64,000 nucleotides of DNA from positions 32,878 through 96,877 of the IMG/VR virus record IMGVR_UViG_3300048110_000147; one strand, given 5' to 3'. The notes below the pieces were generated by a model. The model ran no database searches, was not told the DNA's origin, and worked only from the letters and a program-made list of their open reading frames with translations. This document shows, piece by piece, positions 4,872 through 33,461 of the stretch (positions are counted from its first letter, which is position 1; each line of letters starts with the position of its first letter). This stretch comes from a virus. Made by a program: the position numbers and the translations under genes.

Positions 4872-6092
4872 TTATCTACGGGCTGAATCCCAACCCTTTA
4901 ATATATCGGATGAAAAGTTGTTGTATGAAAATTCCATACGGTCAACCAATTTCACCGCGTCACCACCAAGCGTATCAATTGCAACGTATCCTTCTTCACC
5001 AGTCACTTTGTAACCATTAGAAGTTTTCACGAAAGTATCAATCGATTTAAGTTTGTCTAAACTATTTATAAGTTTTAATTTGACTAAAACAATTAATTTT
5101 TGCAATTCAAACATCTTAACTAGATTAGCCTTGTTTGTATCGGAGAAAAACTCCATCTCATCCTTCATTTTGGCAATCCAATTGTCCTTACCACGTTGAG
5201 ATTTCTTGCTTGCAATCTCTTTTTTGTAGTAAGCTTGTCTATTACTTATCAATCCCTTAACATGCTTTTTTGAGTCTGGGAGTAAGGACCCTGCACGAAC
5301 GAACGAATTATTGTATGTTTCAATCGCCTGTGCGATATCAGGATTATCTGCGAGGGTCTTAATAGTGGTAGCAGAAGTCTGCTTGAACAAACGACCTATC
5401 TGGGTTAGTAGATCATTGACCGCTTTGGTTTCACGTTCAGACATCGTAGCATTAGTTGCGTCTTTCAACATTGCATCCTGTGACCATACGTTTACAGAAT
5501 TGCGAAATTTCGACACGTCAACCCCATATGTCGCTCGCATCGACTCAAACGTATCGCCAGTGTATGTTGTGTGCCATACGATACCGATCTTAGCAGCACG
5601 TACTTCTTTCGCCTGATCATAGGGAACTGCGTATGCGATTGTGTTCGGGTGGAACACACTATACTTCTGACCATCGATGGTCTTAGTAGTGACATCTCCG
5701 TCACCAAATAAAAAGTCGCCTTGCACAACACCATCGATTCCTAGTGACGGTAAATACTTGAGTGCGTCTTTCAACTTAGAGTTCAGATCACCTGACGTGT
5801 CCGCGTCGATGTCTGCGTCGGTCTTGTAGACCTTTGGGTTCTTGTTGAAGATACCTTTCTTAGCAACGAAGAACTTACCGTCGGATGGATCAATACCACA
5901 GAATACCGCAGGCGCACCGTCCCATTTCACTGACACACGACCACTACCAGATCCAGCTAACAAATCCCGCAAACTACGCAGGGCATTGATCGCCTGACGT
6001 GTGCCGTCAACTCCACCGTAAAGAACTTTGTCCTCAATGTGAGTCATGTGAGTGTTCTTCTGTTCGGTGATAAACTCTGCAAACTTTTCCAT
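4872..6092 (-). CDS. ATP-dependent ligase/capping-superfamily nucleotidyltransferase-like protein (DUF6267-like) with capsid-targeting-like N-terminus
   Basis: Motif I-like VSVKWDGAP, motif III-like VQGDFLF, motif IV-like EEGYVAI, motif V-like VKLVDR; start MEKFAEFITE (ATG at 6092). Confidence 0.7.
   Translation of the reverse strand: MEKFAEFITEQKNTHMTHIEDKVLYGGVDGTRQAINALRSLRDLLAGSGSGRVSVKWDGAPAVFCGIDPSDGKFFVAKKGIFNKNPKVYKTDADIDADTSGDLNSKLKDALKYLPSLGIDGVVQGDFLFGDGDVTTKTIDGQKYSVFHPNTIAYAVPYDQAKEVRAAKIGIVWHTTYTGDTFESMRATYGVDVSKFRNSVNVWSQDAMLKDATNATMSERETKAVNDLLTQIGRLFKQTSATTIKTLADNPDIAQAIETYNNSFVRAGSLLPDSKKHVKGLISNRQAYYKKEIASKKSQRGKDNWIAKMKDEMEFFSDTNKANLVKMFELQKLIVLVKLKLINSLDKLKSIDTFVKTSNGYKVTGEEGYVAIDTLGGDAVKLVDRMEFSYNNFSSDILKGWDSARR
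5063..5070 (-). promoter_or_regulatory. T4-type late promoter (TATAAATA), inside the ligase-like gene
   Basis: Exact TATAAATA on minus strand about 220 bp upstream of the 4845 start. Confidence 0.45.
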
Positions 6093-7991: not shown

Positions 7992-8019
7992 AGTATAACA
8001 GATACTATTTATATGTCAA
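7992..8019 (-). promoter_or_regulatory. Composite early (TTGACA-N16-TATACT) and late (TATAAATA at 8006-8013) promoter
   Basis: Minus strand reads TTGACA-TATAAATA-gtatctgt-TATACT upstream of the 7956 start. Confidence 0.65.
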
Positions 8020-8728
8020 GAGCATTTGTACTATTTTCTTCGTTATATTGGGCGATAGTATCTCGTAATGGACGCACCCAGTTGTCACGATGTTCGATAA
8101 ACACCTGTGGTTCATGGTTGTCGACAGAGATAATAGTCACAAGTTGGGTGATAGGCATACCCGTGCGTTCTTCCCACATAATAGAATATGCAGACTCTTG
8201 CATGAAGTAGTTCTTGATCCAGTCAAGACGTTTGGGTTTCATGGATGTCTTGTAGTCAATGATGGAAGGTTTGCCATCAAAGATGCCCACACAATCCACA
8301 CGACCAGCGACACCTAGGTGCGTAGAGTAGAGTGGTGCTTCTTGAGCGTAGACTGTACCAAGACGTTCATCAAGGATGGGTTTGAGTTTCAGGAAAGACT
8401 CGATTAAATCGGGAGTACGTTTGGTCAACGTTTGTTCACCAGTGTCGATATTCATCGCCATGTACTTGTCATAGTCGGGGTCGTTGTTTACGTACTGTTC
8501 ACAAATTTCGTGAACCGCAGTACCACGCGTAGATGCGCGATAGGAGATACGGTTTGCTTCTTTCTCACCGACACGAGCACGCCACTTTGCAATGGAGTCA
8601 CGGGACAGTATAGAAAGGACCGTAGTGATAGAAGGTAGTTGAATACCTTCGGGAGTTTTGTATTGACGGCCCATGTCTGTAGTAACAGCAGTCATTTCGG
8701 TCAAAGGGATAGGTTCGTGTGTAAACAT
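8009..8728 (-). CDS. PD-(D/E)xK exonuclease (Cas4/RecB-like phage exonuclease)
   Basis: LPSITTVL, RGTAVH, AGRVD, IIDYKTS, Q..AY motifs. Confidence 0.85.
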   Translation of the reverse strand: MFTHEPIPLTEMTAVTTDMGRQYKTPEGIQLPSITTVLSILSRDSIAKWRARVGEKEANRISYRASTRGTAVHEICEQYVNNDPDYDKYMAMNIDTGEQTLTKRTPDLIESFLKLKPILDERLGTVYAQEAPLYSTHLGVAGRVDCVGIFDGKPSIIDYKTSMKPKRLDWIKNYFMQESAYSIMWEERTGMPITQLVTIISVDNHEPQVFIEHRDNWVRPLRDTIAQYNEENSTNALDI

Positions 8729-8759: not shown

Positions 8760-8789
8760 ATTATAACATCTTTTAGAAACGTTTGTCAA
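8760..8789 (-). promoter_or_regulatory. Sigma70-type early promoter
   Basis: TTGACA-N18-TATAAT upstream of the exonuclease. Confidence 0.7.
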
Positions 8790-8831
8790 GGGCAAACGGT
8801 GACTATTTTTACGGTATTGGTCAAATAAGAA

Positions 8832-9017
8832 TCCCCACGAATACAGGGGCTCAAGTGAATGGTACTTCATGTGTCGGAGAACCGTAACTTGTGGGATTGA
8901 GGTCTCCCATCTGCTCTGGCATTTTTAACATGCACGTTGTGAGAGATCGCAGTTATCAAGTTAGTGCGCTTGGTGCGCATCGTTCTTCTCTAGTACCGAG
9001 CCCCCGTATTGTGGGGA
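8832..9017 (-). ncRNA. Putative structured ncRNA (186 nt), downstream of tRNA-Ala
   Basis: About 20-bp closing stem (TCCCCACAATACGGGGGCTC / GAGCCCCTGTATTCGTGGGGA), nested helices GGTACT/AGTACC, TAACTTG/CAAGTTA, CTGC/GCAG and three hairpins; no credible ORF. Confidence 0.7.
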
Positions 9018-9030
9018 AATTCGTGAAAAG

Positions 9031-9106
9031 TGGTGGAGCCGATAGGGATCGAACCTACGACCTATTCCGTGCAAGGGAATCGCTCTCCCAACTGAGCTAC
9101 GGCCCC
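9031..9106 (-). tRNA. tRNA-Ala(TGC)
   Basis: Cloverleaf GGGGCCG...CGGCTCCACCA, G3:U70 pair, TTCGATC T-loop, encoded CCA. Confidence 0.97.
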
Positions 9107-9121
9107 ACAATTCTTACTAAA

Positions 9122-9271
9122 CTACTTTTCCTTATTTATACTCTTTTCTTTCTTGACAGATTCCTCTGTCTTTTTGTCTTTACCGAAGATTTTATCCCAG
9201 TTATCTCTACCTTGTTTTGATAACGTCTTAGACTGTATTGCGTCTCCGGTTATGTCGTTTCTACTTACCAT
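9122..9271 (-). CDS. Small hypothetical protein
   Basis: Likely start MVSRNDITGD at 9271; NDITGD...WDKIF pattern typical of small phage proteins. Confidence 0.6.
   Translation of the reverse strand: MVSRNDITGDAIQSKTLSKQGRDNWDKIFGKDKKTEESVKKEKSINKEK
9133..9140 (-). promoter_or_regulatory. Late promoter for tRNA-Ala and the ncRNA
   Basis: TATAAATA 26 nt upstream of the tRNA-Ala 5' end. Confidence 0.65.
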
Positions 9272-9404: not shown

Positions 9405-9621
9405 TTTCAATCTGGCTCTTTACCCAATCTAGTTCTTGAATGATTCTGTTATACCATGCGACATCAATTTCAGAATTGTTAGGATTGTTTGCTTCCATCC
9501 TAAGTTGTTCCATTCGTATGTCTATGTAGTCACACCTTATAAATTCTTTTTTAGACACTCTATCTAAGAATGCTTTTTTCGCTAAGGTCAAGCATTCTAC
9601 ATTACTATTACTATTACTCAT
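9397..9621 (-). CDS. Hypothetical protein
   Basis: Likely start MSNSNSN overlapping the upstream stop; WYNRIIQELDW motif. Confidence 0.65.
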   Translation of the reverse strand: MSNSNSNVECLTLAKKAFLDRVSKKEFIRCDYIDIRMEQLRMEANNPNNSEIDVAWYNRIIQELDWVKSQIENV

Positions 9622-11036
9622 TGGACACACCCTAATTCTCTGCGCGAATCTTCGTCGTTGTTAGTTACACAGAGACCAGTAGGCAACTCTGTAGGTACAT
9701 ATCTCATCAAGTCTGGGTCATATAAACTATTTTCTAAGAATGATACCAGATTAGATATCTCTTCCTCAGACAGATCTAGGGGAGTGAATCTATAGTCTAT
9801 ATCTATAAGATCTACATCTGGGTGTTGTGGTGTTGCCGCAACTTTGTATCGTACCACTTCTTCAACACTAGTGAATGATGCACCGTGACCGAATACTTCT
9901 GTGTCTGTCAGATTATATAGAGGCGGTACCTTAAATGCATACTTCTCCATATCGTCACCAGTAAAACCAGCGCGGCCTTCTCTAACACCTTCACCGACTT
10001 CACCGATGATATCGTCCCACATGTCTAGATCGTGGAATCCAAGTGTCATAAACACTTCACTTGCAAGAGAACCGACAGGAGATGAAAGAGCGGGACCGTT
10101 GTGACACGAGTGACAGTTACCTTTACCGAAGAACACTTTCGCGCCTTCGACTTCTTCTAAAGTCATCGCGTCTTCGTCACCACGTAAGAAGTCTTGAAAT
10201 GGTGCTTGGTTTGCGAGAATGGTTCTCTCGTATGCGGCAATCGCAAAAGATGCTGCTTCTAACATATCATTAGGTTGTGAGGTACCGTATGCCGCTTCGA
10301 ACATCATCCGATACTTCTCATTAGTAGTGAGCACAGAACCTTCTTCTACATTCATGCGATGTACACCTAGACCAGCAACTGCTTGAGTCTCTAGACCAGC
10401 AAGATTACGTAGGTTAGCCTCTTTAGGAGTGCCTTCAGTGAAGTGCCTTTCAGGGTCAATACCAATGTTAACTATACCTCCGATCACATTGCCGAACTGT
10501 CCGTTCCACAACATGACTTCTTGATATGCAGTATTAAGTACTGTGGGTGATGTCACAGGTTGTACATCAACTGTTGAAGGGTCAACTCCAGCAGCAACTG
10601 TACGATGGTCAAACCCTACACCGCCTTCACCAATACCTTGACGAATACCGGACTTGAAACCATTCTGTCCGTTGTGACATGAAGCACAGGACCACGTGTT
10701 ATCCATATCTGTCTGGTTGGTTTCAGTAGACGTGATTCCCGTCTCGTGATAAATGAACTTACCCAACTCTACTTTTTCAGCAGTAATAGGGTTACTTGGA
10801 TCTTGAGGGATGTTTAGAAAGTCATCACTCTCAGGTAAGATATACCCTTCGTAAGAACCTGTCGGGGATGTAGTACTCATCACAGTTTTTAGTTCTTCAA
10901 CGGCAATCTCAAGTGCTGTTAAGGTAGGTGCTGGGGGTGGTGCGATGGTAACAGGTTCTGGTGCAGATTCTGAACCACCTCCAGAACATGCGCTAAGAAC
11001 AGTAGTACATAATACTACGGATAATAGTTGTTTCAT
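9618..11036 (-). CDS. Di-haem cytochrome c peroxidase / MauG-family lipoprotein
   Basis: Lipobox LSAC; two CxxCH motifs (CASCH, CHSCH); KVELGK, SPTVLN, LWNG, FKVPPLYN, FGHG conserved segments. Confidence 0.88.
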   Translation of the reverse strand: MKQLLSVVLCTTVLSACSGGGSESAPEPVTIAPPPAPTLTALEIAVEELKTVMSTTSPTGSYEGYILPESDDFLNIPQDPSNPITAEKVELGKFIYHETGITSTETNQTDMDNTWSCASCHNGQNGFKSGIRQGIGEGGVGFDHRTVAAGVDPSTVDVQPVTSPTVLNTAYQEVMLWNGQFGNVIGGIVNIGIDPERHFTEGTPKEANLRNLAGLETQAVAGLGVHRMNVEEGSVLTTNEKYRMMFEAAYGTSQPNDMLEAASFAIAAYERTILANQAPFQDFLRGDEDAMTLEEVEGAKVFFGKGNCHSCHNGPALSSPVGSLASEVFMTLGFHDLDMWDDIIGEVGEGVREGRAGFTGDDMEKYAFKVPPLYNLTDTEVFGHGASFTSVEEVVRYKVAATPQHPDVDLIDIDYRFTPLDLSEEEISNLVSFLENSLYDPDLMRYVPTELPTGLCVTNNDEDSRRELGCVQ

Positions 11037-11066: not shown

Positions 11067-11157
11067 TGGCCGAGGGATAGGGATTCGAACCCTAGATACG
11101 CTATTAACGTATGCCAGTTTTCAAGACTGGTGCATTCAACCGCTCTGCCATCCCTCG
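11067..11157 (-). tRNA. tRNA-Ser(TGA)
   Basis: Cloverleaf with long variable arm, anticodon loop CTTGAAA, G73, CCA. Confidence 0.95.
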
Positions 11158-11169
11158 ATTTATTTAAAC

Positions 11170-11198
11170 ATGATACACTAATTGACAGGAGTTGTCAA
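11170..11198 (-). promoter_or_regulatory. Sigma70-type promoter for tRNA-Ser and the peroxidase
   Basis: TTGACA-N17-TATCAT. Confidence 0.65.
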
Positions 11199-11216
11199 CC
11201 CCACTTTCATATTTTC

Positions 11217-11293
<77 letters not shown>

Positions 11294-11303
11294 GTAGAAA
11301 AGT

Positions 11304-11378
11304 TGGCTGGGGTGGAAGGATTCGAACCTACGAATGACGGGATCAAAACCCGTTGCCTTACCACTTGGCGACACCCCA
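11304..11378 (-). tRNA. tRNA-Gln(TTG)
   Basis: TGGGGTG...CACCCCAGCCA, loop TTTTGAT. Confidence 0.96.
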
Positions 11379-11437
11379 AACCTGTTTGCTCTACTGGGCA
11401 CCACTGATTCAGTTATTTTAAAAGGGGAATCAGACCC

Positions 11438-11797
11438 TTAGTTTTTTCTCAATCCTTCTTTGCCTTTGTGAAATCTTCCCCAGATACAGTGTGCCACTTC
11501 ATGACCAATAAGTTCCGGTTCGTATTTCCATTCAGGGTCCTTTATGTATATCTTACAAGTTCCCTTAGATTCGTTCCAAAGAGTGAAGGCGCTAATATTG
11601 TTCCACTTAACGCCTAAGTACTGTTTACGTACAGAATCATATTCCATTTGGTTCTTTAGTAAAACAAACTCGACCTTTGGTGTAAGATTTTCTCCTTCCT
11701 TAACAAGGAATTTAAAATTATCTTTAGCATACCTTCCCAGTCTCTGAGCATCTGCTGAAACCGATAAGACTAATAGGAATATTAATAGTTTTCGCAT
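11438..11797 (-). CDS. Secreted small HExxH (zincin-like) protein
   Basis: Signal peptide MRKLLIFLLVLSVSADA; IGHEVAHC motif. Confidence 0.65.
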   Translation of the reverse strand: MRKLLIFLLVLSVSADAQRLGRYAKDNFKFLVKEGENLTPKVEFVLLKNQMEYDSVRKQYLGVKWNNISAFTLWNESKGTCKIYIKDPEWKYEPELIGHEVAHCIWGRFHKGKEGLRKN

Positions 11798-11815
11798 AAT
11801 TGTAAACAGTAAAAA

Positions 11816-11892
11816 TGGTCGGAGATGTAGGATTTGAACCTACGACCCCTGCACCCCAAATGCAGTGCACTACCAGACTGTGCTAATCTCCG
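11816..11892 (-). tRNA. tRNA-Pro(TGG)
   Basis: CGGAGAT...ATCTCCGACCA, loop TTTGGGG. Confidence 0.96.
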
Positions 11893-12105
11893 TTAATTGT
11901 TTGAAACAAATTCGTTGATGACTTTTACCCTTTCCATGATATCTTGCATATTAGGGTATGTCGGAAACTCTGGGATGGTATCAACGCCACCAGTTTCAAT
12001 CAAGACTTCTCGGCGATTTACTTGAGCCCAGTACTCATCTGTTAGGACATTTCTTGCTTCGTTAAAGATTTGGAACCGAAGTTCGTATGGGTTTGGATTA
12101 GACAT
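11893..12105 (-). CDS. Small hypothetical protein (70 aa)
   Basis: Real start MSNPNPYELRF at 12105 with AGGAGA RBS; the ORF-track extension runs through tRNA-Tyr and is spurious. Confidence 0.75.
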   Translation of the reverse strand: MSNPNPYELRFQIFNEARNVLTDEYWAQVNRREVLIETGGVDTIPEFPTYPNMQDIMERVKVINEFVSNN

Positions 12106-12207
12106 AATTGTCTCCTTTTGTGTGTGTTTGTGTGTTGAGCAGTTTTCCACATACTCAGGTGACGGGCGTAACGACCAGTGCAAGTTTAAAGTCATTCCGA
12201 GACTAAT

Positions 12208-12291
12208 TGGTGGGGAGAGGTGGATTCGAACCACCGAAGCTCTCGCGTCAGATTTACAGTCTGATCCCTTTGGCCGCTCGGGAACCTCCCC
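12208..12291 (-). tRNA. tRNA-Tyr(GTA)
   Basis: GGGGAGG...CCTCTCCCCACCA, loop CTGTAAA, long variable arm. Confidence 0.96.
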
Positions 12292-12297
12292 TAGTGG

Positions 12298-12450
12298 TTA
12301 TTTGAGTTGATCTTTTGAACTGGATGAACTATTTGATCCAGTCCCTGTACCACTACTTTTACCGTGACCTAGTCCACGCTTACCTTGTCGGAACCGATTG
12401 ACAAAGTAAATGACCACTGCTACTAGAAAAACTACCGCTAATACTTCCAT
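12298..12450 (-). CDS. Small single-pass membrane protein
   Basis: Start MEVLAVVFLVAVVIYF with AGGAGA RBS; basic, Ser/Gly-rich tail. Confidence 0.65.
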   Translation of the reverse strand: MEVLAVVFLVAVVIYFVNRFRQGKRGLGHGKSSGTGTGSNSSSSSKDQLK

Positions 12451-12460
12451 ATCTTTCTCC

Positions 12461-12673
12461 TTAGTCGAGGATAATTTCCTCGCGCTTCTTCTTAGCAGGT
12501 TGGCGAATTCCAAGGTAAGTTTCGAGAATCTCGATCTCCTTGTCCTTACGCTTCTGCCACTGTTGCTCCGTTCGAGCAACCCCTTTCTTGCTGTTCTTCT
12601 CAAAGAACTTTGACTCTGTGAGTCTCTCTAATGCACCTTCACGGCGACGACGATCTTCTAACTTACCTCTCAT
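12461..12673 (-). CDS. Small basic hypothetical protein
   Basis: Start MRGKLEDRRR with AGGAG RBS. Confidence 0.65.
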   Translation of the reverse strand: MRGKLEDRRRREGALERLTESKFFEKNSKKGVARTEQQWQKRKDKEIEILETYLGIRQPAKKKREEIILD

Positions 12674-13016
12674 AAACGCTCCTAGTTTCTTTATTAAGAT
12701 CAATGGAATCTATATAAACTGACTCGTTGACATAATCGCCTTTGGGTATGGTTCCTTGTTCAAAAGGTTTATCATCATACCTGTTAACCCAAAAACGTAC
12801 GACCTTACCTTTATCATTAAGGGTATACCCACAAAGTTTTTCATTGGGATATGCATAATATGAACCATTAAAATTACCCTCTTTATCAAAGGGATTGCGC
12901 AGTCCATTTGACTCATGTTCCCTAGCAGTAATATAGGGGGATACCGAAATAAATTCTTTCTCTACCATACTTGGTCTAGTAGACACTTTTGATGGCATTC
13001 CAAGTGCATCTCTCAT
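12663..13016 (-). CDS. Hypothetical protein
   Basis: 117 aa ORF, GAGGA RBS. Confidence 0.65.
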   Translation of the reverse strand: MRDALGMPSKVSTRPSMVEKEFISVSPYITAREHESNGLRNPFDKEGNFNGSYYAYPNEKLCGYTLNDKGKVVRFWVNRYDDKPFEQGTIPKGDYVNESVYIDSIDLNKETRSVYER

Positions 13017-13045
13017 AAACTATCCTCATTTCCTCATTATAAAAT

Positions 13046-13122
13046 TGGCGGAGCGGACGGGACTCGAACCCGCGACCCCCGGCGTGACAGGCCGGTATTC
13101 TAACCAACTGAACTACCGCTCC
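13046..13122 (-). tRNA. tRNA-Asp(GTC)
   Basis: GGAGCGG...CCGCTCCGCCA, loop CTGTCAC; very close to gammaproteobacterial tRNA-Asp as I recall it. Confidence 0.98.
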
Positions 13123-13291
13123 AGATTCTTCTTAAATATGTATGCTCGGTATCCGATGACTCCAAAACAAAAATGTCGCCTTCCTTGAATGAGGATATAG
13201 ATAAATCTAATTTCTCCTCATCTTTGTTCAACAACTTGACCCCATTGATGTCTTCTTCGAATTTATAACCTAAGTAAAACATTGAACTCAC
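13100..13291 (-). CDS. Small hypothetical protein (3' end overlaps tRNA-Asp)
   Basis: 63 aa, start overlaps the upstream stop; FKEGDIFVL motif. Confidence 0.55.
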   Translation of the reverse strand: MSSMFYLGYKFEEDINGVKLLNKDEEKLDLSISSFKEGDIFVLESSDTEHTYLRRIWSGSSVG

Positions 13292-13668
13292 GAGTTCTCC
13301 AAATCATGTACATGTAACTGGATCAATGCATAATGGAGAACCTTCATTAGGTCTTTACGAGCATCATCCTCAGTACCTTTCTTACCATACCGTTGTGCAT
13401 ACTTCAACACGTTTCCAATACAAAACCCTGTACCATGACCACCGTCAACAATAAATTCAGTCGCCTGAAACTTGTCTTTGGCATAATGCTGATTGTATGT
13501 CGCATCGATATATTGTTTGAACTCATCAATCAACTTACCTTCACTAAACTTATAGTCCACAGTACTAATATCAGCAGCTTCTCGCATTGTTACACCGTTC
13601 GAGTATCTCTCAAACTCTACCGTCTCATTAGTATAAGGTGGAGTGTGTGCATAAATCGTTTTACTCAT
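13288..13668 (-). CDS. DUF3310-like (SaV-like) phage protein
   Basis: HY...GFCIGNVLKY..RYGKKG...DL.K..HY pattern. Confidence 0.75.
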   Translation of the reverse strand: MSKTIYAHTPPYTNETVEFERYSNGVTMREAADISTVDYKFSEGKLIDEFKQYIDATYNQHYAKDKFQATEFIVDGGHGTGFCIGNVLKYAQRYGKKGTEDDARKDLMKVLHYALIQLHVHDLENS

Positions 13669-13669
13669 A

Positions 13670-13957
13670 TTACCATTCTCTCAATATAGTTGTGCCTAAC
13701 ATAAACAATGAAACCGTGTTCAACATAATCAACGCACGGTCTTTCCATATAACAGATACCCAAGTCCATAGTATAATGCCTGCGAACCCGATTGTCAAGT
13801 CATACATGCGATAGTCTGGTCCGGCAGATCGCATCGCCATTGAAATTAAAATCAAAATAGAAGCGACCCACTTGAGATACCAATCGAAGTCATCGGGGTA
13901 CCACGAACGATCCGGTTTAGTTCGACCATCTGCTCTTACTTGAGGGTCTCCGTTCAC
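13670..13957 (-). CDS. Small multi-pass membrane protein
   Basis: DWYLKWVAS..., three hydrophobic segments, W.DRALI.LN. Confidence 0.7.
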   Translation of the reverse strand: MNGDPQVRADGRTKPDRSWYPDDFDWYLKWVASILILISMAMRSAGPDYRMYDLTIGFAGIILWTWVSVIWKDRALIMLNTVSLFMLGTTILREW

Positions 13958-14307
13958 GATTTACTTCCGATAGTACGACGAACGATATCGTTGTGATTGA
14001 ACTCTGCCCAATACAACTCAAATGCAACTCCGTCTTTGAGACCTTCGAACTGGTGAATCTTTCCTGGCTTGACTTGAGTGAACTCTCCCGCACGTAGAAT
14101 GGTCTCATCGACAAGACCGTCTTGGTCATCTTGCCATACGCGCACGATCATCTCACCAGATTCTACGAAGAACCCGTTCCACTTATATTCATGGAGATGT
14201 TCGGAGCACTTGAAACCTTTCTTGTATTCGATACGATGAAACTCTAGAACGCCATTCGCATGAATGAGTTCTGTCTGTCCCCAAATCTTTCCTGCCTTCA
14301 TAGTCAT
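13954..14307 (-). CDS. Cupin-fold protein (mannose-6-phosphate isomerase C-terminal-like)
   Basis: K.WG, CSEHLH..K.N.F.V.SG, PG..H.F, E cupin motifs. Confidence 0.78.
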   Translation of the reverse strand: MTMKAGKIWGQTELIHANGVLEFHRIEYKKGFKCSEHLHEYKWNGFFVESGEMIVRVWQDDQDGLVDETILRAGEFTQVKPGKIHQFEGLKDGVAFELYWAEFNHNDIVRRTIGSKS

Positions 14308-14332
14308 ACTACTCTCACTGGATCATAATTAT

Positions 14333-14417
14333 TGGTGCGAAAGGAGAGACTCGAACTCTCACGCCGTGAAGCACTGGTACCTAAAACCAGCGTGTCTACC
14401 AATTCCACCACTCTCGC
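14333..14417 (-). tRNA. tRNA-Leu(TAG)
   Basis: GCGAGAG...CTTTCGCACCA, loop TTTAGGT, long variable arm. Confidence 0.96.
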
Positions 14418-14421
14418 ATAT

Positions 14422-14497
14422 TGGCTGGCAAGGCAGGGCTCGAACCTGCGACCAGATGATTAACAGTCATCGGCTCTACCAACTGAGCTACTTGCCA
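14422..14497 (-). tRNA. tRNA-Asn(GTT)
   Basis: TGGCAAG...CTTGCCAGCCA, loop CTGTTAA. Confidence 0.96.
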
Positions 14498-14522
14498 ATA
14501 AAAACTTCACTATTTGATAAAC

Positions 14523-14551
14523 ATTGTATCATAGTAATACCTGTCTGTCAA
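14523..14551 (-). promoter_or_regulatory. Sigma70-type promoter for tRNA-Asn/Leu
   Basis: TTGACA-N17-TACAAT. Confidence 0.65.
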
Positions 14552-14566
14552 TAGCGAATGAAATAT

Positions 14567-14821
14567 TTATTCTCCTACCGCTGCTCTTGCAACTAATTCT
14601 TCTTGTGTCACCTTACGACTCACAAGTTCGTTACGAAACTTTTGCTTCAACTTTGGGGTGCGACACGACAAGAACTCTTTCCACAGATTGTCTGAAGACA
14701 AATTCTTTACGTAGAACCTTTGGGTTGTTGTCTTTCCAGTCATCCGATCTTTGTTGACTGTATCTTCTTTATACTTAATTGGCATTCTTACCTCACATTT
14801 TAAAATAGGGTAACGCAACAT
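14567..14821 (-). CDS. Small basic hypothetical protein
   Basis: ORF track 84 aa; true start probably MPIKYKED after GAGG. Confidence 0.6.
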   Translation of the reverse strand: MLRYPILKCEVRMPIKYKEDTVNKDRMTGKTTTQRFYVKNLSSDNLWKEFLSCRTPKLKQKFRNELVSRKVTQEELVARAAVGE

Positions 14822-15029
14822 TTTCTACGTTAACTTCGCTTTCTTCTTCAGCGCCACACCAAGAACATTCCTGTCCTCTGGCAACGTAGATATGACCATC
14901 GTGCATACAATGATGACTCCACATGACCGTGCGCATGTTCATATAGAAGCATTCGTTGAACACTTCGTCCCACACTTTATTGCCTGTTTTGGAAATAGGT
15001 GACTGTGCAATATCCATTTCTCTCTCCAA
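14793..15029 (-). CDS. Small putative Zn-ribbon protein
   Basis: W.H.C...C.WCG metal-ligand pattern. Confidence 0.6.
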   Translation of the reverse strand: MEREMDIAQSPISKTGNKVWDEVFNECFYMNMRTVMWSHHCMHDGHIYVARGQECSWCGAEEESEVNVENVALPYFKM

Positions 15030-15033
15030 CTAA

Positions 15034-15108
15034 TGGTATCCCGTAGGGGACTCGAACCCCTGTTACCGCCGTGAAAGGGCGGTGTCCTAACCTCTAGACG
15101 AACGGGAC
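15034..15108 (-). tRNA. tRNA-Glu(TTC)
   Basis: GTCCCGT...ACGGGATACCA, loop CTTTCAC. Confidence 0.96.
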
Positions 15109-33385: not shown

Positions 33386-33461
33386 TGGAGCTCGGAACAG
33401 GAGTCGAACCTGCGACCTGCTGATTACAAGTCAGCTGCTCTACCAACTGAGCTATCCGAGC
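33386..33461 (-). tRNA. tRNA-Thr(TGT)
   Basis: GCTCGGA...TCCGAGCTCCA, loop CTTGTAA. Confidence 0.96.

Follow-up and report, generated by a model that had tools for sequence, protein, structure and literature searches.

This locus raises the question of what occupies the 3′ end of the tRNA cluster in an uncultured T4-like phage, between the last tRNA and the exonuclease gene that follows it. In T4 itself the place is taken by two small RNAs, RnaC (species 1, 139 nt) and RnaD (species 2, 119 nt), which were first described decades ago and which lie directly 3′ of the last tRNA, on the tRNA strand, in the order tRNA-Arg, rnaD, rnaC. Both are non-coding and accumulate late, and their function is unknown (PMC9697503). 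The stretch of DNA analysed here, hereafter the window, comprises 64,000 nucleotides of an IMG/VR virus record. An earlier note on it, made from the letters alone, had placed a multi-branched RNA after tRNA-Ala, had compared it with RnaC and RnaD, and had offered a 6S-like decoy or a new motif as its identity. As checks it had proposed a comparison with Rfam (6S, manA, tmRNA) and a collection of homologues with a test for covariation.

The window belongs to a 96.9-kb record with T4-type genes for major head protein, portal and DNA polymerase. Identity of the head protein reaches 73% with its counterpart in the GenBank entry ‘Phage C48C1’ (unclassified Kyanoviridae, Pantevenvirales) and ∼60% with the counterparts in Pelagibacter phage HTVC008M, Methylophilales phage Melnitz and cyanomyoviruses. 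The carriers of the element are one uncultured lineage of aquatic T4-like phages (Pantevenvirales), with C48C1 as the nearest deposited genome; in the records covered here no cultured host is given for any carrier, the C48C1 entry included.

The element itself is a 186-nt structured RNA read from the minus strand, from 9017 to 8832, exactly where and on the strand the earlier note had put it. Its minimum free energy is −69.8 kcal/mol, compared with −45.4 ± 4.0 kcal/mol for 200 dinucleotide shuffles, none of which folds as low (z = −6.16). The G + C content of the window copy is 0.51, within a range of 0.42–0.51 across homologues, and that of the window is 0.39–0.47. The element, its helices and its surroundings are listed in Table 1. 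Taken together, the comparative sequence evidence set out below indicates a previously uncatalogued family of structured, non-coding RNA elements, present in single copy and always the terminal member of a phage tRNA cluster.

Table 1. Coordinates of the RNA element, its helices and its flanking features in the window; the last column gives pairs with compensatory changes per helix in the 41-row alignment.
Feature	Positions	Strand	Details	Compensatory pairs
Late box TATAAATA	9133..9140	−	T4-type late promoter consensus; 26 nt before the tRNA-Ala 5′ end	
tRNA-Ala (anticodon UGC), encoded CCA	9031..9106	−	ARAGORN, 67.3 bits; last tRNA of the cluster	
Spacer between CCA and RNA, 13 nt	9018..9030	−	Ends in UU or similar	
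Structured RNA	8832..9017	−	Fold z = −6.16; covariation; covariance-model matches of 38.7–152 bits (41 aligned hits)	
P1	9017–8998 with 8852–8832	−	∼20 bp; RNA nt 1–20 with 166–186; one bulged C	10/14
P2	8997–8992 with 8866–8861	−	GGUACU/AGUACC	3/5
P3	8986–8982 with 8882–8878	−	Register AGAAC/GUUCU	4/5
P3a hairpin	8965..8979	−	UGCGC-ACCAA-GCGCA; third arm of the three-way junction	2/5
P4	8963–8957 with 8891–8885	−	UAACUUG/CAAGUUA	7/7
P5	8952–8949 with 8914–8911	−	CUGC/GCAG	4/4
Unpaired UCUCUCA	8940..8946	−	Within the 15-nt strand linking P5 to P6; invariant	
P6 hairpin	8919..8933	−	GCAU-loop-AUGC, then CC; stem almost invariant	
Optional expansion hairpin	8892..8909	−	UGGGA-GACCUCAA-UCCCA; between P5 and P4	
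U-rich tract UUCUUAUUUG	8822..8831	−	Directly after the G + C-rich P1 base; probable intrinsic-termination point	
Inverted repeat TGAC..N..GTCA	8800..8823	−	Between U-tract and −35 box; family A only	
Sigma70 promoter	8760..8789	−	TTGACA-N18-TATAAT with TG extension; 12/12 consensus matches	

The element sits in a recurring arrangement of signals. Upstream of the tRNA lies the octamer TATAAATA, which we take, from established knowledge of T4-like phages, to be a T4-type late promoter. It occurs 14 times in the window, always on the minus strand, which is the coding strand, against 2.9 occurrences expected, and none of 100 shuffles reaches 14. The copy at 9133–9140 bears out the late promoter that had been read above tRNA-Ala. 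Across homologous loci the octamer stands upstream of the tRNA in 19 of 23, at 96–127 nt before the start of the element (158 nt in one locus). The 14 minus-strand sites, at 5063, 8006, 9133, 17280, 31463, 32688, 42637, 42987, 46333, 46349, 50429, 54934, 54946 and 63749, form a map of candidate late promoters in the window. Only the site at 9133 adjoins a tRNA; none falls in the main tRNA cluster (11067–15108), and none lies within ∼750 nt upstream of tRNA-Thr (33386–33461).

The ARAGORN call of tRNA-Ala confirms the distance of 13 nt that had been given between its CCA and the element. Where its identity was checked among homologues, the tRNA immediately before the element is Ala, with Asp in one locus (L032). 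The spacer between tRNA and element measures 3–18 nt in every locus inspected and always ends in UU or similar. On the other side of the tRNA, between tRNA-Ser and tRNA-Ala, lies a di-haem cytochrome c peroxidase/MauG-like gene (9618–11036, minus strand; Pfam CCP_MauG, 5e-23), which is present in all four large genomes that carry the element and absent from the two complete relatives discussed below. Another locus (L026:104–307) shows a match below threshold to the proteobacterial sRNA sX4 in Rfam (50.1 bits, gathering score 70), which overlaps the tRNA-Ser region upstream of the peroxidase gene and is probably driven by the tRNA.

Downstream, a T-rich tail follows P1 directly in all 23 loci; in the window the terminator-like site spans 8848..8833 and continues into the tail ATTCTTATTT. 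A G + C-rich stem running into a U-rich tract is a feature of intrinsic terminators. The compact hairpin with a short loop that also belongs to them is not found here, as the stem encloses a conserved structure of ∼145 nt. In 21 of 23 loci the next gene is separated from the element by a sigma70-like promoter, and the one in the window (8789–8760) precedes the gene assigned to it, which encodes a PD-(D/E)XK exonuclease (8009–8728). Family A members, to which we return below, also have an inverted repeat of the form (G)TGACnnn..N10-12..nnnGTCA(C) at this place. Both of its arms change in relatives (GTGACCAA/TTGGTCAC, TGACTA/TAGTCA). The repeat may act as an operator that a DNA-binding protein recognises, or it may form another small hairpin at the RNA level.

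Homologues were found by several routes. BLASTN returned one partial match, in the GenBank phage C48C1 and again directly after tRNA-Ala. A 17-nt core pattern matched 16 IMG/VR contigs, and a covariance model (R1) run over 80 loci, retrieved through the neighbouring exonuclease, gave 38 matches. These include much more divergent forms without the core pattern (family C), which R1 matches at 17–36 bits. A second retrieval of loci added family D, which lacks the hairpin P3a, and a metagenome scan contributed 22 further contigs, one of them a TARA scaffold. In total, 32 distinct homologous sequences of 144–189 nt were assembled from IMG/VR, metagenome contigs and C48C1. The element is single-copy in its own IMG/VR record. 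Beyond this set, a looser family C core pattern matched 55 times in IMG/VR, and only the nine loci already known were real. The family A/B/D core pattern, which does not reach the divergent family C core, matched 77 times in 185,579 prokaryote genomes; all of these matches are chance by a filter with a second model, R2 (best 21 bits, partial), so no host copy with the family A/B/D core is present in those genomes. R2 likewise found no match in Pelagibacter phage HTVC008M, Methylophilales phage Melnitz or Synechococcus phage S-BM3, nor in five related IMG/VR genomes, two of them complete.

One of the homologous loci (L023:1700–2520, on IMG/VR contig 3300025874_000006, which is genome G001) contains a 377-nt tandem duplication with its junction inside the element. 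After the full element (1835–2021) come a spacer hairpin, the promoter, a short insert with a classic terminator at its end (AAACCGCTTTTGGGCGGTTTTTTT) and the second copy. The latter consists of the 3′ part of the element only (from about GTGCATG), closer to the window variant, plus the promoter. Just upstream of the tRNA in the same locus, an ORF (L023:1348–1767) has, from its sequence motifs, the look of an HNH endonuclease.

Comparison of the homologues reveals covariation. In a 41-row alignment (32 distinct rows), standard pairs fill 94.6% of pair cells, as compared with 30–51% when the 3′ partners are slid by 1–3 columns. Both sides change in a compensatory manner in 30 of 44 pairs, a level of covariation not attained in any of 500 shuffles; these pair counts are biased toward the covariance model, to which the large alignments had been fitted. 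A 21-row alignment gives the same picture. MAFFT alignment of 10 sequences followed by RNAalifold recovers P1, P2, P3a, P4 and P6, with 13 compensatory pairs. All homologues come from one clade and the changes fall mainly between the four subfamilies A, B, C and D, so that the number of independent events is modest. P6 is nearly invariant and is the only helix without compensatory changes.

Most of the helices that had been drawn from the single sequence hold up in this comparison. The ∼20-bp terminal stem corresponds to P1 and GGTACT/AGTACC to P2, and the hairpins TGCGC..GCGCA and GCAT..ATGC correspond to P3a and the almost invariant P6; TAACTTG/CAAGTTA (P4) and CTGC/GCAG (P5) vary in a compensatory way at every pair. 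The helix GAGAA/TTCTC was drawn in the wrong register: it is paired in 50.3% of alignment cells and shows zero covariation, as against 90.8% for the shifted register of P3, in which four of five pairs are compensatory. The hairpin TGGGA..TCCCA is real in the window and does not belong to the core, as it is absent from many homologues and replaced elsewhere by unrelated AGAG/CUCU, AAGAC/GUCUA or GUGAC/GUCAC stems. RNAalifold also proposes a local hairpin that excludes P2, pairing columns 21–23 with 34–36 of alignment A5 (window ∼8998–8996 with 8990–8988). This pairing reads CUC/GAG in family A and UCU/AGA in family B, and is lost in families C and D. A pseudoknot between a GAGA at the junction and the UCUCUC of the loop, in which the purine run of that local hairpin would find another partner, was also considered and set aside. 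It is possible in families A and B (3–6 bp) and not kept in C and D, and covariation is silent on it because the loop never varies.

The resulting fold is predicted to be a rod, in which P1 and P2 are followed by an asymmetric internal loop, P3, a three-way junction with P3a and P4, and finally P5. The internal loop between P2 and P3 has 0–9 nt on its 5′ side and in family D is a one-sided 9-nt bulge. At the tip of the predicted rod, a single strand of 13–18 nt with the invariant UCUCUCA adjoins the near-invariant small hairpin P6. UCUCUCA is identical in all 32 distinct sequences, including those of the divergent families C and D, which were recovered without it as a search pattern. The loop of P6 varies freely in sequence and length across the same sequences, and its stem is almost invariant. 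P3a is absent from family D and from two further loci (L036 and L043). Since family D does without P3a and the expansion hairpin is optional, the minimal conserved architecture is the rod P1-P2-P3-P4-P5 tipped by the 13–18-nt strand and P6.

That the element is an RNA read from the tRNA strand is supported by its paired positions. These contain 46 G-U combinations as against 13 A-C, which indicates that the structure is better on the tRNA strand; folding energy does not discriminate, as the minimum free energies of sense and antisense are similar. No reading frame is conserved among the 32 sequences, which have lengths in all three classes modulo 3 and stops in nearly every frame. A small protein gene was rejected because frames are interrupted and lengths differ by other than multiples of three. 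The C48C1 record carries a 31-codon CDS inside the homologous RNA (‘hypothetical protein’ WJE87956.1; L001:3170–3265, OQ984149.1 59600–59695), and since its frame is not conserved in the family, this is most likely a false gene call. A role at the level of DNA, as a cruciform, an origin, or a packaging or recombination site, or else as a small protein gene, is largely refuted and has a negligible share of our belief. In its favour are the antisense folding energies, the annotated CDS of C48C1 and the duplication junction inside the element of L023. Against it stand the strand asymmetry of G-U and A-C, the irregular frames and lengths, an invariant segment that is unpaired, and a place between tRNA and U-tract on the transcribed strand that fits an RNA.

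Comparison with Rfam 15 (4227 models) supports the verdict of a new motif. Its scope covers 6S, manA, wcaG, tmRNA, Y RNA, riboswitches and ribozymes, and only tRNAs pass the gathering score. No family matches the element at gathering score or at E ≤ 10, beyond two chance-level overlaps: the mir-305 model on the opposite strand (18.5 bits, gathering score 66) and the permuted-tmRNA model on the first 21 nt (15.6 bits, gathering score 47). In seven relatives no match overlaps the element at E ≤ 5, and ARAGORN finds no tmRNA in the window. The manA, wcaG and other motifs of marine phages are also structured, some of them near tRNAs (PMC2864571), and none has an Rfam match to the element. A survey of IMG/VR has listed 8,495 numbered structured-RNA candidates of 29–151 nt, with no function assigned (Fremin, Bhatt, Kyrpides 2023, PMC10690425). 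They share with the element both their source and the evidence of covariation in phage intergenic regions, and this set may contain part of the element.

The closest parallel is with the small RNAs of T4. Like RnaC and RnaD, the element lies directly 3′ of the last tRNA and on the same strand. It has no detectable homology with them, as R1 run with filters off scores T4 rnaC and rnaD at 4.9 and 4.3 bits (E ∼2–3), which is noise. RnaC bears a tRNA-like T-arm (CCGGGUUCGAAUCCCGG), which the new RNA lacks, and RnaD has no significant fold (z = −0.8). The new RNA exceeds both in size; its long closing stem is followed by a U-tract, and a late box of its own stands before the tRNA. It is a new RNA family with no Rfam homologue, of a known kind, the small RNAs that end T4-type tRNA clusters, and part of it may already stand among the numbered IMG/VR candidates.

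Its distribution is consistent with this parallel. Four large genomes with the element (G001, G007, G008 and C48C1) contain 7–12 tRNAs, and the element ends the array, whereas two complete relatives without it (G005 and G006) have 1–2 tRNAs. In the genomes compared it occurs only alongside a tRNA cluster, and the RNA thus goes with the tRNA module, like its counterparts in T4. The exonuclease genes of tRNA-rich and tRNA-poor genomes are about equally similar to that of the window.

How might such an element be made and used? In the reading that we prefer, and to which we give a probability of roughly one half, it would be a stable non-coding RNA made late together with the tRNA, in which P1 serves as terminator and as protection of the ends and the invariant loop is the working site. 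The late box, tRNA, element, U-tract and fresh promoter would form a short transcription unit, from which the element would be transcribed together with the preceding tRNA, mainly late in infection. The 3′ end of the tRNA needs maturation by host nucleases, and the same enzymes would cut the element loose on its 5′ side, where P1 begins. Its 3′ end would come from intrinsic termination, once the 3′ strand of P1 has paired at the G + C-rich base of the stem before the U-tract. With flush, fully paired ends locked into a 20-bp helix, the RNA should be long-lived, and the P1 stem would in addition keep late transcripts from running on into the early genes downstream, which sigma70 drives. Against this reading, intrinsic terminators do not usually consist of a helix that closes a 150-nt domain.

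The tip of the rod is the putative working site, at which the invariant strand and P6 would bind a partner in trans. That these stay invariant while the rest of the rod changes freely looks like the mark of a specific binding site. An antisense role was rejected: sites complementary to the loop (TTGAGAGAT, at most one mismatch) number 27 in the window, as against 27.1 expected, and since they are not enriched in the phage we favour a protein partner over an RNA partner. Pairing of CUCUC with GAGAG in the tRNA D-arm amounts to 5 bp, too short for meaning. Neighbouring proteins of the window contain no Ro, RtcB or RNA-binding domains. A co-occurrence screen found 97 ORFs of G001 in all four element-carrying genomes and in neither of the two complete genomes without it. 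Most of these are shadow frames, and about ten were taken as real genes, nine of which gave three Pfam matches (sulfotransferase-like, lysozyme and tail chaperone), besides the MauG-like peroxidase described above. The screen, a comparison confounded by phylogeny, gave no RNA-related match.

The main rival to this stable-RNA reading is a purely cis-acting module, which we hold to be rather unlikely. It would be an elaborate terminator, insulator and processing platform at which tRNA and late transcripts end, with a part in maturing the 3′ end of the tRNA and in protecting the early promoter, and it might double as a PeSL-type recombination cassette. Its conserved core would then be recognised by a processing nuclease or a termination or antitermination factor rather than act in trans. 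PeSL cassettes of T4-like phages likewise combine a terminator-type stem with an early sigma70 promoter at module boundaries (PMC2839356, PMC4122927), and that order recurs here in 21 of 23 loci, where P1 and the U-tract are immediately followed by a sigma70 promoter. The locus also resembles PeSL sites in its traces of recombination, with the tandem duplication whose junction lies in the element and the HNH endonuclease-like ORF upstream. However, the stem-loops of PeSLs are simple and short, A3-4G3-loop-C3T3-4 being an example (PMC4122927), and they are repeated with an early promoter at many boundaries, dispersed over the genome. Here only the combination of stem and promoter is seen, the stem closes a multi-helix domain of 145–190 nt, and there is a single copy per genome. 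Six helices and an invariant 7-nt loop have been kept despite strong divergence, and termination alone needs neither; moreover, complete relatives do without the element, and a cis role leaves its conserved tip unexplained. P1 could instead be a conditional terminator, a riboswitch- or protein-controlled attenuator, in which binding at the core would stabilise P1 and set late read-through into the exonuclease operon. That P1 both closes the conserved domain and serves as terminator stem would suit such a device, as would the P2-excluding pairing, in which families A and B differ at both partners. We nevertheless find it very doubtful, since families C and D have lost that pairing, the element matches no model of a known riboswitch, and a consensus promoter for the downstream gene stands between element and start codon. 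A riboswitch or cis-leader would have no promoter before the gene that it regulates, and in 21 of 23 loci a sigma70-like promoter intervenes.

The 6S-like decoy of the earlier note, which would titrate sigma70 holoenzyme late in infection, did not fare well and is now highly improbable. A length of ∼185 nt, a long closing stem formed from both ends and a late promoter are shared with 6S RNA (RF00013 and relatives). No anti-sigma factor AsiA (PF09010) is found in the whole C48C1 and G001 records by a search that detects T4 AsiA at 2e-43, so that the lineage lacks this T4 protein, which merely leaves room for the idea. On the other side, no 6S model matches the window at E ≤ 10 or the seven relatives at E ≤ 5, and nothing ties the RNA to RNA polymerase. 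The hallmark of 6S RNA, a large two-sided central bubble between long closing and terminal stems, is missing, the P2/P3 loop of family D being one-sided. The element has instead a three-way junction in its distal arm, with its conserved residues in the apical strand rather than in a bubble. A broader proposal, for which we see a slim chance, is that the element is a late-phase decoy or regulator of aquatic T4-like phages with tRNA clusters, abundant, released from the tRNA transcript and sequestering a host factor at its UCUCUCA/P6 tip. The factor could be a tRNA-directed nuclease of host defence, a protein that binds pyrimidines (ribosomal protein S1, for example) or the sigma70 holoenzyme, AsiA being absent from this lineage.

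The gain is tempered by the many unnamed candidate RNAs of a like kind already on record for phages. The element merits proposal as a new Rfam family, and in its light at least one protein annotation in GenBank, in C48C1, can be corrected as probably false. In environmental T4-like phages, the slot of T4 RnaC and RnaD is filled by an unrelated and much better conserved RNA, which suggests a recurring solution, a stable RNA that closes the tRNA cluster, rather than an oddity of T4. The new RNA is also the cleaner experimental object: its fold is clear, its 7-nt loop is invariant, and it belongs to a unit that runs from promoter to terminator, in which loop and P1 can be mutated separately. If the reading as a decoy for a host factor is true, it would give a first handle on the purpose of the RnaC/RnaD class of phage RNAs.
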